Virus record (IMG/VR): IMGVR_UViG_2603880147_000004
Length of the DNA: 8,331 nt
Reading direction: 5' to 3' (one strand)
Source: a virus
Taxonomy: Duplodnaviria; Heunggongvirae; Uroviricota; Caudoviricetes
The notes beneath the pieces are model-generated. The model worked only from the letters and a program-made list of their open reading frames with translations, had not been told where the DNA came from and made no database searches. How positions within the stretch are numbered: the first letter of the stretch is position 1; every line of letters starts with the position of its first letter. The position numbers and the translations under genes were made by a program. Below are positions 1,012 to 8,331 of the stretch, one piece after another.

Positions 1012-1755
1012 ATGACACAGACAGAATCAGCGATTCTGGCGCACGCCCGGCGATGTGCGCCAGCGGAGTCGTGCGGCTTCGTGGTGAGAGCGCCGGAGGG
1101 GGAAAGATATTTTCCCTGCGTGAATATCTCCGGTGAGCCGGAGGCGTATTTCCGTATGTCGCCGGAAGACTGGCTGCAGGCAGAAATGCAGGGTGAGATT
1201 GTGGCGCTGGTCCACAGCCACCCCGGTGGTCTGCCCTGGCTGAGTGAGGCCGACAGGCGGCTGCAGGTGCAGAGTGATTTGCCGTGGTGGCTGGTCTGCC
1301 GGGGAGTGATTCATAAGTTCCGCTGTGTGCCGCATCTCACCGGGCGGCGTTTTGAGCACGGGGTGACAGACTGTTATACGCTGTTCCGCGATGCCTATCA
1401 TCTGGCGGGGATTGAGATGCCGGATTTTCATCGCGGGGATGACTGGTGGCGTCACGGTCAGAATCTCTATCTGGATAATCTGGAGGCCACAGGGCTGTAT
1501 CAGGTGCCGTTGTCAGCGGCACAGCCGGGCGATGTTCTGCTGTGCTGTTTTGGTTCATCGGTGCCGAATCACGCCGCCATTTACTGCGGCGACGGCGAGC
1601 TGCTGCACCATATTCCTGAACAACTGAGCAAACGAGAGAGGTATACCGACAAATGGCAGCGACGCACACACTCCCTCTGGCGTCACCAGGCATGGCACGC
1701 ATCTGCCTTTACGGGGATTTACAACGATTTGGCCGCCGCATCGACCTGCGTGTGA
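1012..1755 (+). CDS. K: Tail tip assembly protein K (lambda gpK family), two-domain JAMM/MPN + NlpC/P60
   Basis: Intact ORF. ATG at 1012 lies 4 nt after the L stop (MTQTESAILAHARRCAPAESCGFVV...). JAMM-type motif HSHPGGLPWLSEAD (HxH-x7-S-x2-D) with an upstream Glu (PAESCGF). NlpC/P60-like Cys (GVTDCYTLF) and His (NHAAIYCGDGELLHH) follow. Start is uncertain: the track offers TTG 970 inside L, and the classical lambda annotation uses the internal ATG at 1156. Confidence 0.88.
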   Translation: MTQTESAILAHARRCAPAESCGFVVRAPEGERYFPCVNISGEPEAYFRMSPEDWLQAEMQGEIVALVHSHPGGLPWLSEADRRLQVQSDLPWWLVCRGVIHKFRCVPHLTGRRFEHGVTDCYTLFRDAYHLAGIEMPDFHRGDDWWRHGQNLYLDNLEATGLYQVPLSAAQPGDVLLCCFGSSVPNHAAIYCGDGELLHHIPEQLSKRERYTDKWQRRTHSLWRHQAWHASAFTGIYNDLAAASTCV

Positions 1756-2324
1756 AAACGGGGGCCGAAGCCATCCGCGCACTGGCCACACAGCTCCCGG
1801 CGTTTCGTCAGAAACTGAGCGACGGCTGGTATCAGGTACGGATTGCCGGGCGGGACGTCAGCACGTCCGGGTTAACGGCGTAGTTACATGAGACTCTGCC
1901 TGACGGCGCTGTGATTCATATTGTTCCCAGAGTCGCCGGGGCCAAGTCAGGGGGCGTATTCCAGATTGTTCTGGGGGCTGCCGCCATTGCCGGATCATTC
2001 TTTACTGCCGGAGCCACTCTTGCAGCATGGGGGGCAGCCATTGGGGCCGGTGGTATGACCGGTATCCTGTTTTCTCTCGGTGCCAGTATGGTACTTGGTG
2101 GTGTGGCGCAGATGCTGGCACCGAAAGCCAGGACGCCCACGGCAGCAAGTACAGATAACGGCAAACAGAACACCTATTTCTCCTCACTGGATAACATGGT
2201 TGCCCAGGGCAATGTTCTGCCCGTTCTGTACGGTGAAATGCGCGTGGGGTCGCGGGTGGTCTCTCAGGAGATCAGCACGGCAGACGAAGGGGATGGTGGT
2301 CAGGTTGTGGTGATTGGTCGCTGA
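1653..2324 (+). pseudogene. I: Tail tip assembly protein I (lambda gpI family), interrupted by an in-frame TAG at 1881-1883
   Basis: ATG at 1653 overlaps the K 3' end by 103 nt in another frame, as in lambda. The frame is open for 76 codons (MAATHTLPLASPGMARICLYGDLQRFGRRIDLRVKTGAEAIRALATQLPAFRQKLSDGWYQVRIAGRDVSTSGLTA), then TAG, then the same frame continues with no further stop to TGA 2322-2324 (LHETLPDGAVIHIVPRVAGAKSGGVFQIVLGAAAIAGSFF...GGQVVVIGR). Total length 672 bp equals a 223-aa gpI plus stop. In lambda the position is Gln (CAG) as I recall. Confidence 0.85.
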
Positions 2325-2342
2325 TGAAAAACATTTTATGTG

Positions 2343-2384: not shown

Positions 2385-5300
2385 ATGGGTAAAGGCAGCA
2401 GTAAGGGGCATACCCCGCGCGAAGCGAAGGACAACCTGAAATCACCCAGATGCTGAGCGTGATAGACGCCATCAGCGAAGGGCCGATTGAAGGTCCGGTG
2501 GACGGATTAAAAAGCGTGCTGCTGAACAGTACGCCGGTGCTGGACAGTGAGGGGAATACCAATATCTCCGGCGTCACGGTGGTGTTCCGGGCAGGTGAGC
2601 AGGAGCAGACACCGCCGGAGGGATTTGAATCCTCCGGCTCCGAGACGGTGCTGGGTACGGAAGTGAAATACGACACGCCGATTACCCGGACCATCACGTC
2701 GGCAAACATCGACCGTCTGCGCTTTACCTTCGGTGTGCAGGCACTGGTGGAAACCACCTCAAAGGGGGACCGGAATCCGTCGGAAGTCCGCCTGCTGGTT
2801 CAGATACAGCGTAACGGTGGCTGGGTGACGGAAAAAGACATCACCATTAAAGGCAAAACCACCTCACAGTATCTGGCATCGGTGGTGGTGGATAACCTGC
2901 CGCCGCGCCCGTTCAATATCCGGATGCGCAGGATGACGCCGGACAGCACCACAGACCAGCTGCAGAACAAAACGCTCTGGTCGTCATACACCGAAATCAT
3001 CGATGTGAAACAGTGCTACCCGAACACGGCACTGGTCGGCGTACAGGTGGATTCGGAGCAGTTCGGCAGCCAGCAGGTGAGCCGTAATTATCATCTGCGC
3101 GGGCGTATTCTGCAGGTGCCGTCGAACTATAACCCGCAGACGCGGCAATACAGCGGTATCTGGGACGGAACGTTTAAACCAGCATACAGCAACAACATGG
3201 CCTGGTGTCTGTGGGATATGCTGACCCACCCACGCTACGGCATGGGGAAACGTCTTGGTGCGGCAGATGTGGACAAATGGGCGCTGTATGTCATCGGCCA
3301 GAACTGCGACCAGTCAGTGCCGGACAGCTTTGGCGGCACGGAGCCGCGCATCACCTGTAATGCGTACCTGACCACACAACGCAAGGCCTGGGATGTGCTC
3401 AGTGATTTCTGCTCGGCGATGCGCTGTATGCCGGTATGGAACGGGCAGACGCTGACGTTCGTGCAGGACCGACCGTCGGATAAGGTGTGGACCTATAACC
3501 GCAGTAATGTGGTGATGCCGGATGATGGCGCGCCGTTCCGCTACAGCTTCAGCGCCCTGAAGGACCGCCATAATGCCGTTGAGGTGAACTGGATTGACCC
3601 GAACAACGGCTGGGAGACGGCGACAGAGCTTGTTGAAGATACGCAGGCCATTGCCCGTTACGGTCGTAATGTCACGAAGATGGATGCCTTTGGCTGTACC
3701 AGTCGGGGGCAGGCACACCGCGCCGGGCTGTGGCTGATTAAAACGGAACTGCTGGAAACGCAGACCGTGGACTTCAGCGTGGGTGCTGAAGGGCTTCGCC
3801 ATGTACCGGGCGATGTCATTGAAATCTGCGATGATGACTATGCCGGTATCAGCATCGGCGGGCGCGTGCTGGCGGTGAACAGCCAGACCCGGACGCTGAC
3901 GCTCGACCGTGAAATCACGCTGCTATCCTCCGGTACTACGCTGATAAGCCTGGTTGACGGAAGTGGCAATCCGGTCAGCGTGGAGGTCCAGTCCGTCACC
4001 GACGGCGTGAAGGTAAAAGTGAGCCGTGTTCCTGACGGCGTTGCAGAATACAGCGTGTGGGGGCTGAAGTTGCCGACGTTGCGCCAGCGCCTGTTCCGCT
4101 GTGTGAGTATCCGTGAGAACGATGACGGCACGTATGCCATCACCGCCGTGCAGCATGTACCGGAAAAAGAAGCCATCGTGGATAACGGGGCGCACTTTGA
4201 CGGCGACCAGAGCGGCACGGTGAATGGCGTTACGCCGCCAGCGGTGCAGCACCTGACCGCCGAAGTCACCGCAGACAGCGGGGAGTATCAGGTACTGGCC
4301 CGCTGGGACACGCCGAAGGTGGTGAAGGGCGTGAGCTTCCTGCTCCGTCTGACCGTAACAGCGGATGACGGCAGTGAGCGGCTGGTCAGCACGGCCCGGA
4401 CGACGGAAACCACATACCGCTTCAGGCAGCTGGCGCCAGGGAACTACAGGCTGACGGTCCGGGCGGTAAATGCGTGGGGACAGCAGGGCGATCCGGCGTT
4501 GGTATCGTTCCGGATTGCCGCCCCGGCAGCGCCGTCGCGGATTGAGCTGACGTCGGGCTATTTTCAGATAACTGCCACGCCGCATCTTGCGGTTTATGAT
4601 CCGACGGTACAGTTTGAGTTCTGGTTCTCGGAAAAGCGGATTGCGGATATCAGGCAGGTTGAAACCACAGCACGCTATCTTGGCACGGCGCTGTACTGGA
4701 TAGCCGCCAGTATCAATATCAGGCCGGGCCATGATTATTATTTTTACGTTCGCAGTGTGAACACCGTTGGCAAATCGGCATTCGTGGAGGCTGTTGGTCA
4801 GCCGAGTGATGATGCATCCGGCTATCTGGATTTTTTCAAAGGCGAGATAGGGAAAACCCATCTGGCTCAGGAGCTGTGGACGCAGATTGATAACGGTCAG
4901 CTTGCGCCTGACCTGGCTGAAATCAGGACGTCCATTACGGATGTCAGCAATGAAATCACGCAGACCGTCAATAAGAAACTGGAAGACCAGAGTGCGGCAA
5001 TTCAGCAGATACAGAAGGTTCAGGTTGATACAAATAATAACCTGAACAGCATGTGGGCTGTGAAGCTGCAGCAGATGCAGGACGGACGCCTTTATATCGC
5101 GGGTATTGGTGTCGGTATTGAGAACACCCCTGACGGCATGCAGAGTCAGGTGCTGCTGGCGGCGGACAGGATTGCGATGGTTAATCCTGCGAATGGCAAC
5201 ACAAAACCGATGTTTGTTGGTCAGGGCGATCAGATATTCATGAACGACGTGTTCCTGAAACGCCTGACGGCCCCCACCATTACCAGCGGTGGAAATCCAC

Positions 5301-5863
5301 CGGCATTTTCCCTGACACCGGACGGAAAGCTGACTGCTAAAAATGCGGATATCAGTGGCAGTGTGAATGCGAACTCCGGGACGCTCAACAACGTCACGAT
5401 TAATGAGAACTGTCAGATTAAGGGGAAACTGTCAGCCAATCAGATTGAAGGCGATATTGTCAAAACAGTGGGTAAGGCTTTCCCGCGGGACTCCCGGGCA
5501 CCGGAGCGGTGGCCATCAGGGACCATTACCGTCAGGATTTATGACGATCAGCCTTTTGACAGGCAAATTGTTATTCCAGCGGTGGCATTCTGCGGCGCTA
5601 AACATGAGCGGGAGAATAACGATATTTATTCGTCATGCCGCCTGATAGTGAAGAAAAATGGTGCTGAAATTTATAACCGTACCGCGCTGGATAATACGCT
5701 GATTTACAGTGGTGTTATTGATATGCCAGCTGGTCACGGCCACATGACGCTGGAGTTTTCGGTGTCAGCATGGCTGGTAAATGACTGGTATCCCACAGCA
5801 AGTATCAGCGATTTGCTGGTTGTGGTGATGAAGAAAGCCACCGCTGGCATCAGTATCAGCTGA
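2385..5863 (+). pseudogene. J: Tip attachment / host specificity protein J (central tail fibre), with a frameshift about 20 codons from the start; the long open frame is 2450-5863
   Basis: ATG at 2385 with GGAG at 2373-2376 encodes [20 protein letters not shown], the gpJ N-terminus as I recall it, and hits TGA at 2454-2456 after about 22 codons. The 1137-codon ORF 2450-5863 is in another frame, begins [32 protein letters not shown] (lambda gpJ residues about 23 onward) and has no SD before its ATG. This implies a net 1-bp deletion near 2440-2448. The rest is gpJ-like to about 4840, then divergent. Confidence 0.88.
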
Positions 5864-5930: not shown

Positions 5931-6530
5931 ATGCGTAAAGTTTGTGCAGCCATTTTGTCCGCAGCCATCTGTCTGGCCGTATCCGGTGCGCCTGCATGGG
6001 CGTCTGAGCAGCAGGCCACACTGAGCGCAGGGTATCTTCATGCCCGTACGAACGCTCCCGGCAGCGATAATCTGAACGGGATTAACGTGAAATACCGTTA
6101 TGAGTTTACGGACACGCTGGGGCTGATTACGTCATTCAGTTATGCCAACGCTGAAGATGAGCAAAAAACGCATTACAGCGATACCCGCTGGTATGAAGAT
6201 TCCGTGCGTAACCGCTGGTTCAGCGTGATGGCGGGGCCGTCTGTGCGCGTGAATGAATGGTTCAGCGCGTATGCGATGGTGGGTGTGGCTTACAGCCGTG
6301 TGTCGACTTTCTCCGGGAATTATCTGCAGGTGACCGACAATACGGGGAAAACGCACGATGTGCTGACCGGAAGTGATGACGGTCGCCACAGCAACACGTC
6401 TCTGGCGTGGGGGGCTGGCGTGCAGTTTAACCCGACCGAATCCGTGGCCGTTGATGTCGCTTATGAAGGCTCCGGCAGCGGTGACTGGCGTACCAACAGT
6501 TTCATCGTTGGTGTCGGTTATAAATTCTGA
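5931..6530 (+). CDS. lom: Lom-like outer membrane protein (Ail/Lom/PagC/OmpX 8-strand beta-barrel family), prophage moron
   Basis: 199-aa ORF with SD GAGAGG at 5920-5925 five nt before the ATG. Signal peptide [24 protein letters not shown] then SEQQ. C-terminus [22 protein letters not shown] ends in the aromatic residue typical of OMP barrels and closely matches the lambda Lom C-terminus as I recall it. Internal [12 protein letters not shown] and SVMAGP motifs are also shared. It sits between J and stf as in lambda. Confidence 0.9.
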
Positions 6531-6594: not shown

Positions 6595-8331
6595 ATGGCA
6601 GTACGGATTTCAGGTGTACTGAAAGATGGCGCAGGTAAGCCGATACAAAACTGCACCATTCAGCTAAAGGCCAGGCGCAACAGCACCACGGTGGTGGTGA
6701 ACACAGTGGCCTCAGAAAACCCGGATGAAGCCGGGCGTTACACAATGGACGTCGAGTATGGTCAGTACAGCGTCAGTCTGTTGGTGGAGGGATTCCCGCC
6801 GTCACACGCCGGGATTATCACCGTATATGAGGACTCAAAGCCGGGCACACTGAATGATTTCCTCGGTGCAATGACGGAGGATGATGTCCGGCCAGAGGCA
6901 CTGCGCCGTTTTGAACTGATGGTGGAAGAGGTGGCGCGTAACGCGTCCGCAGTGGCACAGAACACGGCAGCCGCGAAGAAGTCAGCCAGCGATGCCCGCA
7001 CCTCAGCCCGGGATGCGGCGGCCTCAAAAGAGGCAGCGAAATCATCAGAAACGAACGCATCATCAAGCGCCAGTAGTGCCGCTTCCTCGGCAACGGCGGC
7101 AGGAAATTCCGCGAAGGCGGCAAAGACGTCCGAGACGAACGCCAGGTCTTCTGAAACGGCAGCGGGACAGAGTGCCTCAGCTGCGGCAGGCTCAAAAACA
7201 GCGGCTGCATCATCAGCCAGTGCCGCGTCAACAAGTGCCGGGCAGGCCTCAGCCAGTGCCACCGCTGCCGGAAAGTCGGCAGAAAGTGCTGCATCGTCTG
7301 CTTCAACAGCCACAACGAATGCTGGCGAAGCCGCTGTACAGGCCAGCGCAGCAGCGAGGTCAGCTTCCGCAGCGAAGACATCCGAAACGAACGCGAAAGC
7401 GTCGGAAACCAGCGCAGAATCCTCAAAAACGGCTGCCGCATCGTCCGCCAGTTCGGCGGCGTCATCGGCATCATCTGCGTCTGCTTCAAAAGATGAGGCG
7501 ACCAGACAGGCGTCAGCAGCGAGGGGCAGCGCCACGACGGCATCCACGAAGGCGACAGAGGCTGCTGGCAGTGCGGCAGCGGCAGCACAGAGCAAAAGTA
7601 CGGCAGAATCCGCAGCAACGCGCGCTGAGACAGCGGCAAAACGTGCAGAGGATATTGCATCCGCCGTGGCGCTTGAGGATGCGAGCACGACGAAAAAGGG
7701 GGTAGTACAGCTCAGCAGTGCGACCAACAGCACTTCCGAGTCACAGGCGGCAACGCCAAAAGCCGTTAAGGCCGCGTATGACCTGGCTAACGGGAAATAC
7801 ACCGCACAGGATGCAACGACAGGACAGAAAGGGATAGTTCAGCTCAGCAGTGCGACTAACAGCACTTCCGAGTCACAGGCGGCAACGCCAAAAGCCGTTA
7901 AGGCCGCGTATGACCTGGCTAACGGGAAATACACCGCACAGGATGCAACGACAGGACAGAAAGGGATAGTTCAGCTCAGCAGTGCGACTAACAGCACTTC
8001 CGAGTCACAGGCGGCAACGCCAAAAGCCGTTAAGGCCGCGTATGACCTGGCTAACGGGAAATACACCGCACAGGACGCTACGACAGCACAAAAAGGAATT
8101 GTCCAGCTCAGTAGTGCAACCAACAGCACATCTGAAACGCTTGCTGCGACACCGAAAGCAGTGAAAGCAGCTAATGACAATGCGAATGGTCGGGTACCTT
8201 CTGCCCGTAAGGTGAATGGTAAGGCGCTTTCAGCGGATATAACACTGACGCCGAAAGATATCGGTACGCTTAACTCAACAACAATGTCATTCAGCGGTGG
8301 TGCTGGTTGGTTCAAATTAGCAACGGTAACC
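6595..8331 (+). CDS. stf: Side tail fibre protein Stf, 5' partial (open to the window end, 579 codons, no stop)
   Basis: I translated frame 1 by hand from ATG 6595 to 8331 and found no stop. The ORF track omits it, presumably because it has no stop in the window. N-terminus MAVRISGVLKDGAGKPIQNCTIQLKARRNSTTVVVNTVASENPDEAGRYTMDVEYGQYSVSLLVEGFPPSHAGIITVYEDSKPGTLNDFL resembles lambda Stf as I recall it. An Ala/Ser/Thr-rich low-complexity region follows, then repeated KGIVQLSSATNSTSE..AATPKAVK tail-fibre motifs. G-rich SD-like run at 6585-6590. Confidence 0.9.
   Translation, partial: MAVRISGVLKDGAGKPIQNCTIQLKARRNSTTVVVNTVASENPDEAGRYTMDVEYGQYSVSLLVEGFPPSHAGIITVYEDSKPGTLNDFLGAMTEDDVRPEALRRFELMVEEVARNASAVAQNTAAAKKSASDARTSARDAAASKEAAKSSETNASSSASSAASSATAAGNSAKAAKTSETNARSSETAAGQSASAAAGSKTAAASSASAASTSAGQASASATAAGKSAESAASSASTATTNAGEAAVQASAAARSASAAKTSETNAKASETSAESSKTAAASSASSAASSASSASASKDEATRQASAARGSATTASTKATEAAGSAAAAAQSKSTAESAATRAETAAKRAEDIASAVALEDASTTKKGVVQLSSATNSTSESQAATPKAVKAAYDLANGKYTAQDATTGQKGIVQLSSATNSTSESQAATPKAVKAAYDLANGKYTAQDATTGQKGIVQLSSATNSTSESQAATPKAVKAAYDLANGKYTAQDATTAQKGIVQLSSATNSTSETLAATPKAVKAANDNANGRVPSARKVNGKALSADITLTPKDIGTLNSTTMSFSGGAGWFKLATVT
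7699..8193 (+). repeat. In-frame tandem repeat inside stf: three 132-bp (44-codon) units plus a degenerate partial fourth
   Basis: Units 7699-7830, 7831-7962 and 7963-8094 are almost identical at the nucleotide level. Units 2 and 3 differ only in their last ~24 nt; unit 1 differs at a few positions near its 5' end. Each encodes G(V/I)VQLSSATNSTSESQAATPKAVKAAYDLANGKYTAQDATT(G/A)QK. A diverged copy follows at 8095 to about 8193 (GIVQLSSATNSTSETLAATPKAVKAANDNANGR). Confidence 0.9.

Follow-up and report, generated by a model that had tools for sequence, protein, structure and literature searches.

Gene content of the window

The window analysed here is a stretch of 8331 bp that makes up the whole of contig JNRO01000056.1, from the draft assembly GCA_000704685.1 of Escherichia coli 3-020-07_S1_C1, and it holds the distal tail module of a lambda-like prophage. 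The gene order L–K–I–J was found, with JAB and NlpC/P60 domains in K, and the 5′ end of I overlaps K by 103 nt. No complete E. coli genome matched the window at 100%; the best match was strain 1297KP (98.8%). The following features were assigned:

46–309: M, 3′ end
309–1007: L
1012–1755, plus strand: K, 247 aa, JAB and NlpC/P60 peptidase, intact (from Pfam domains and gene calls)
1653–2324, plus strand: I, 223 codons, tail tip assembly or plug protein gpI, amber-interrupted pseudogene
1653–1880, plus strand: upstream fragment of I, 76 codons, truncated ubiquitin-like beta-grasp domain (PF06805 match)
1767–2326, plus strand: 560-bp block including the TAG, shared at 100% identity by the window, 1297KP and four sibling contigs
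1911–2324, plus strand: downstream open reading frame (ORF) of I from a GTG, 137 aa, with the last beta-strand of the ubiquitin-like domain, the Gly/Ala-rich hydrophobic linker and the C-terminal plug domain
2385–5863, plus strand: J, central tail fibre and host specificity, with a 1-bp deletion near 2442 that breaks the frame
5931–6530: lom homologue
6595 to window end: side-tail-fibre gene, 5′ part

Several further observations concern the neighbours of I. The K gene of the lambda reference NC_001416 is annotated as 199 aa, and one G is missing from it relative to both the window and the resequenced lambda PV340536.1 (GGAGGC[G]TATTTCC; window 1012–1160 compared with NC_001416 14133–14276). 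With the extra G, K comprises 247 aa and gains the N-terminal part of the JAB domain; judged by this alignment, the shorter K annotated in NC_001416 seems to stem from a one-base difference or an error in the old reference sequence. Between I and J, the spacer (2345–2375) holds a GC-rich hairpin, AAACCGCC-tccg-GGCGGTTT, and behind it a T-rich tract. This hairpin is also kept in lambda with a different loop, and it was not flagged by a simple terminator scan. The side-tail-fibre gene contains a 132-bp tandem repeat (7699–8129, 3.3 copies, 95% matches), the copy number of which appears to differ in 1297KP (a match of 8202 bp to the 8331-bp window).

Amber codon in gene I

Translation of I from ATG 1653 placed an in-frame TAG at 1881–1883, i.e., at codon 77 after 76 sense codons, with 146 further sense codons before the TGA at 2322–2324. 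A previous reading of the letters alone, the sequence-only reading, had described this TAG as splitting a frame that is open on both sides into pieces of 76 and 147 codons; translation agreed with the split and with the first figure, whereas the second includes the stop. The stop excepted, the readthrough product of 223 aa and the gpI of E. coli ATCC 8739 share 100% identity. Lambda I (NP_040599; PDB 8IYK, 8IYL, 8K35, 8XCG and 9E7M) has the same 672 nt, the same position between K and J, the same overlap with the end of K and the same Pfam domain, and its protein differs from the readthrough product only in a four-residue patch (163–166) and at codon 77. This codon is CAG (Gln) in lambda NC_001416, in the resequenced lambda PV340536.1 and in ATCC 8739; thus, a single C-to-T change at 1881 explains the TAG, as had been proposed in the sequence-only reading. 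A deamination hotspot at a Dcm site (CCWGG) was considered as the origin of the change and rejected, as the context GGCGCAGTT contains no such site.

The classical lambda sus (amber) I mutants form no tails in sup0 hosts and defined I as an essential tail gene. The window allele likewise places an amber codon in I; unlike those mutants, which were selected in the laboratory and kept on suppressor hosts, it is natural and lies in a host without evidence of a suppressor.

Domain organisation of gpI and position of the stop

The readthrough protein matched PF06805 (Lambda_tail_I) at residues 14–97 (E 1e−28, 100 bits against a cut-off of 23.8). In phmmer searches of PDB, chain 8iyk_I aligned with it over residues 1–223 (E 5.5e−139) and the 9e7m chains over residues 133–222. 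In the protein, a ubiquitin-like beta-grasp domain (ca. 14–97, with AKSGG at its end) is connected through a hydrophobic linker rich in Gly and Ala to a C-terminal domain (134–223). This agrees with the description of the N-terminal domain of gpI as a ubiquitin-like beta-grasp with a conserved terminal glycine, joined to the C-terminal domain by a Gly-rich linker (Iyer et al., PMC1779556). The same study predicted that the ubiquitin-like domain is cut off by the JAB domain of K. In lambda cryo-EM structures, gpI was modelled only at residues 134/135–223; as a trimer, these plug the lumen of the tip and touch gpJ and the C-terminus of gpH, with three copies of gpI per virion (PMC10721106, PMC12617516). 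Gene I has been scored as essential in lambda (PMC10695390).

The amber codon falls inside the ubiquitin-like domain, ahead of its last strand (AVIHIVPRVAGAKSGG) rather than at a domain boundary, and upstream of the entire virion-resident part of gpI. The 76-residue fragment retains a PF06805 match at residues 14–75 (profile positions 2–60 of 83). Because both halves are homologous to one protein, with the PF06805 match spanning the stop and 8iyk_I aligned from end to end, a chance break between ORFs does not account for the arrangement, and the earlier view that the downstream piece is still gpI holds. The codon at the stop is a sense codon in close orthologues and homology continues on both sides of it; as a result of the TAG at codon 77, the two domains of gpI are not encoded by one uninterrupted frame. 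Judged by this homology, the I of the window is a gpI and PF06805 member by descent, and a pseudogene as written.

Distribution of the amber allele

The same TAG was found on two more contigs of the same assembly (JNRO01000059 and JNRO01000076), in the sibling assemblies GCA_000704745.1 and GCA_000704765.1, and in the complete genome of E. coli 1297KP (NZ_CM173856.1), which comes from another country. In 1297KP, the gene (ACX2DB_RS11440, ‘tail assembly protein’) is a RefSeq pseudogene for which PGAP gives ‘internal stop’; the amber in I is therefore already flagged in the closest complete genome. Its TAG lies at the same codon, and its I differs from that of the window at four synonymous sites, all upstream of 1767. 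The 3′ part of J, lom and the side-tail-fibre gene are nearly identical between the two, whereas K and the 5′ part of J belong to a different flanking haplotype, and J of 1297KP is intact. The TAG was also present on metagenome contig OHAS01021650.1 in a different I haplotype (differing at 1801, 1904, 1952, 1965 and further sites). As a very large collection was searched for one specific allele, this second background is not evidence of a mutation hotspot.

Allele frequencies were obtained with a 30-mer ending in the TAG, for which every 28-base seed includes T1881, and with the corresponding CAG 30-mer as control. Among 5426 complete E. coli genomes, the TAG allele occurred at a single place (1297KP) and the CAG allele at 2456 places in 2076 genomes, which puts the TAG at about 0.04% of these alleles. 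The TAG 30-mer was absent from all of 50,697 phage records, and a TAG 30-mer centred on the codon was absent from IMG/VR and from the GTDB species representatives. This rarity fits a deleterious or recent lesion and not a conserved recoding signal. Programmed readthrough or a naturally split gene was accordingly rejected, given one of 2457 alleles, no phage carrier, a stop inside a Pfam domain and no ribosome-binding site for the second part. The sequence-only reading had named homologues that end naturally at this point, followed by a separate downstream gene, as what would speak against a mutation; exact-match look-ups with the products of 43 aa and 137 aa gave none, and in them the split occurred only in this lineage.

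The same look-ups brought up two kinds of sequence that resemble the amber allele. Contigs with a 43-aa product that end two bases after codon 76 (in GCGCA) proved to be CAG alleles and were not counted. Several unrelated assemblies (metagenome and Logan contigs) break exactly two bases into codon 77, which hints that assembly graphs branch repeatedly at this point of divergence among lambdoid I haplotypes; in protein databases, the resulting 43-aa ‘proteins’ look like the amber product. Five other loci with the 137-aa ORF were rejected as carriers because their codon 77 is CAG. In these, I is broken by unrelated +2/+1, −1 or 22-bp indels, deletions or rearrangements, and some of these lesions may be long-read errors. 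GenBank labels the 137-aa ORF ‘putative tail assembly protein I’ (KDZ18283.1 and others).

The 560-bp block shared between haplotypes

The TAG lies in the 560-bp block at 1767–2326, which is identical in the six sequences compared; on either side of it, upstream (1255–1766) and downstream (2327–2701), a divergence of ca. 4% separates the window from the remaining five. Extrapolation from these flanks predicts about 24 differences within the block (Poisson P about 5e−11). The block is not intrinsically invariant, given that lambda and the window differ at ca. 30 sites within the same 560 bp. The nearest SNPs specific to the window are C1766 and A2327. These findings point to sharing of the block between prophage haplotypes, most simply through homologous recombination of co-resident lambdoid prophages. 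In E. coli O157 Sakai, co-resident Sp prophages have near-identical tail modules, and complementation and recombination among them have been described (PMC2669165). The 1297KP prophage at att-lambda was tried as the recombination donor and rejected, as the flanks of the window showed no particular match to it.

The same pattern could have arisen in the assembly. If the TAG belonged to another lambdoid prophage of the strain, a collapsed 560-bp repeat could have placed it in this contig while the prophage itself carried CAG. Identity of the block despite diverged flanks is what such a collapse would leave, three contigs of the assembly carry the block, two of them with a common start at window 1219 that points to repeat boundaries, and an assembler could copy the TAG from another prophage into a draft contig as short as this one. 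However, C1766 is only 115 bp from the TAG and reachable by one read or read pair, the window contig was reported in three samples, no CAG version was present among the contigs retrieved from these assemblies, and recombination of co-resident lambdoid prophages explains the block equally well. An assembly origin is therefore considered unlikely, while being the most serious of the alternatives. Whether the block was shared by gene conversion or by repeat collapse, the TAG exists in the genome of the source strain.

Prophage context and a possible lesion in J

A second lesion was found in the adjacent gene. Near 2442, J has a 1-bp deletion (AAATCA-CCCAG in the window versus AAATCATCCCAG in E. 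coli WAT, which has the closest haplotype in the 5′ part of J). Translation from ATG 2385 stops after 23 codons, and an ORF of 1137 aa resumes at ATG 2450, overlapping the stop (ATGCTGA). Among the six related sequences, the deletion was found only in the window contig, and it could be a second real lesion or an assembly error.

In 1297KP, the amber-I prophage occupies the Qin locus, with ydfJ on one side and the cspB/cspF/Q region on the other; ydfJ, cspB/F/I, pinQ and tfaQ lie around it. The structural module of the window is otherwise complete, in contrast to the heavily deleted Qin of K-12. In the pools represented by the O157 Sakai Sp prophages and K-12 Qin, resident lambdoid prophages likewise carry point lesions in genes for morphogenesis. 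A second lambdoid prophage of 1297KP, at att-lambda beside ybhC (region examined: NZ_CM173856.1 3270000–3319999), is apparently complete, with intact L, K, I and J. This prophage could potentially complement the amber-I prophage at the Qin locus in trans or recombine with it; complementation of defective lambdoid prophages by co-resident ones is known from E. coli O157 Sakai (PMC2669165).

Translation starts and suppression

Among the candidate starts of I, ATG 1653 has the best Shine–Dalgarno (SD) sequence, with a predicted anti-SD pairing of −9.3 kcal/mol, compared with −7.2 for L and −7.1 for lom. The first in-frame start past the TAG is GTG 1911, for which pairing was only −1.8 kcal/mol; this agrees with the earlier remark that it has no evident SD and leaves the downstream part without an independent translation signal. 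Further downstream, ATG 2055 (Met135) is preceded by an SD-like GGUGGU (−6.0 kcal/mol) that directly touches the start codon. Start annotation of I varies among database records: PGAP places it at GTG 1752 (Val34, in a GTGA overlap with the stop of K) in 1297KP and ATCC 8739; for strain WAT, the annotated start is Met14. Since residue 14 is where the Pfam domain starts and the SD of ATG 1653 is by far the strongest, the 190-aa RefSeq models of gpI probably truncate the ubiquitin-like domain.

Suppression was considered for 1297KP, and a supE-type suppressor was rejected in this genome, as glnV and glnX both have the wild-type CTG anticodon. No tRNA genes were found in the window or in the 48-kb prophage region of 1297KP. 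A glnV with a CUA anticodon (supE44-type) was matched at 100% in 155 of the 5426 complete E. coli genomes. The 60 that were listed of these 155 appear to be K-12 laboratory or K-12-derived strains; some of the records are labelled by host or source (Homo sapiens, chicken, mouse gut). UAG followed by U is reportedly a strong, efficient termination context in E. coli.

A real stop might nevertheless leave a working gene, either through near-cognate or suppressor readthrough of UAG with insertion of Gln or through re-initiation at GTG 1911 or ATG 2055 to give the C-terminal plug part, in a prophage that would remain proficient for tails. The virion-resident part (134/135–223, three copies each) is encoded wholly downstream of the stop, the ubiquitin-like domain is predicted to be cleaved off (Iyer et al., PMC1779556), and the pairing at ATG 2055 is to some degree SD-like. 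If tRNA-Gln read the UAG through at a low level, the residue inserted would be that of the wild type. Documented cases of re-initiation past a nonsense codon include lacI and T4 rIIB. However, an allele at so low a frequency shows no sign of maintenance, supE is absent from 1297KP, as are tRNA genes from the window and from that prophage, there is no SD at GTG 1911, and at ATG 2055 the SD-like stretch sits directly against the start codon. The conservation of the ubiquitin-like domain across the family implies that it is needed, and J of the same contig is frameshifted as well. A functional I in this prophage is thus very improbable.

A related idea is that the amber allele is not null, with the plug supplied by leaky readthrough with Gln, by re-initiation or by gpI from a co-resident prophage, and that the spread of the block reflects down-tuning that is tolerated or even favoured. 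If so, the TAG block on two or three haplotypes in one genome and on a third in a metagenome would represent down-tuned tail production and not decay; we give this idea as little credence as a fully working gene. The sequence-only reading had offered a nonsense mutation or a base-call error, of which the first is upheld: a random base-call or consensus error in one assembly might be suspected in an 8.3-kb draft contig with a 1-bp deletion in J that is unique to it and could itself be an error, but the identical TAG in three sibling assemblies, in a complete genome from another country and in a metagenome contig makes this explanation barely tenable.

Probable decay of gene I in a resident prophage

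The observations are most probably explained by a genuine C-to-T change that turned Gln77 of I into an amber stop with loss of function, i.e., by ordinary nonsense decay of a resident lambdoid prophage. Translation from ATG 1653 would yield a 76-residue fragment without everything that ends up in the virion, and the downstream part, having no ribosome-binding site of its own, would not be expected to replace it. In a non-suppressing host, the prophage would make no functional gpI and hence no infectious tails of its own. A prophage under no selection for virion production would be open to ordinary mutational decay, in which the frameshift in J would be an independent event. Decay is favoured by this frameshift in the same contig, together with the unrelated breaks of I in other E. 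coli assemblies. The TAG is neither a recoding signal nor a natural gene split nor a new kind of element.

The finding has no bearing on questions of tail assembly, and its value is mostly one of bookkeeping. The I of the window and the adjacent J should be annotated as pseudogenes, and the label ‘putative tail assembly protein I’ for the 137-aa remnant is an overstatement. The prophage would not be self-sufficient for virion production. Beyond annotation, the TAG block in otherwise diverged tail modules provides a small, clean marker of exchange between co-resident lambdoid prophages (or of repeat collapse).
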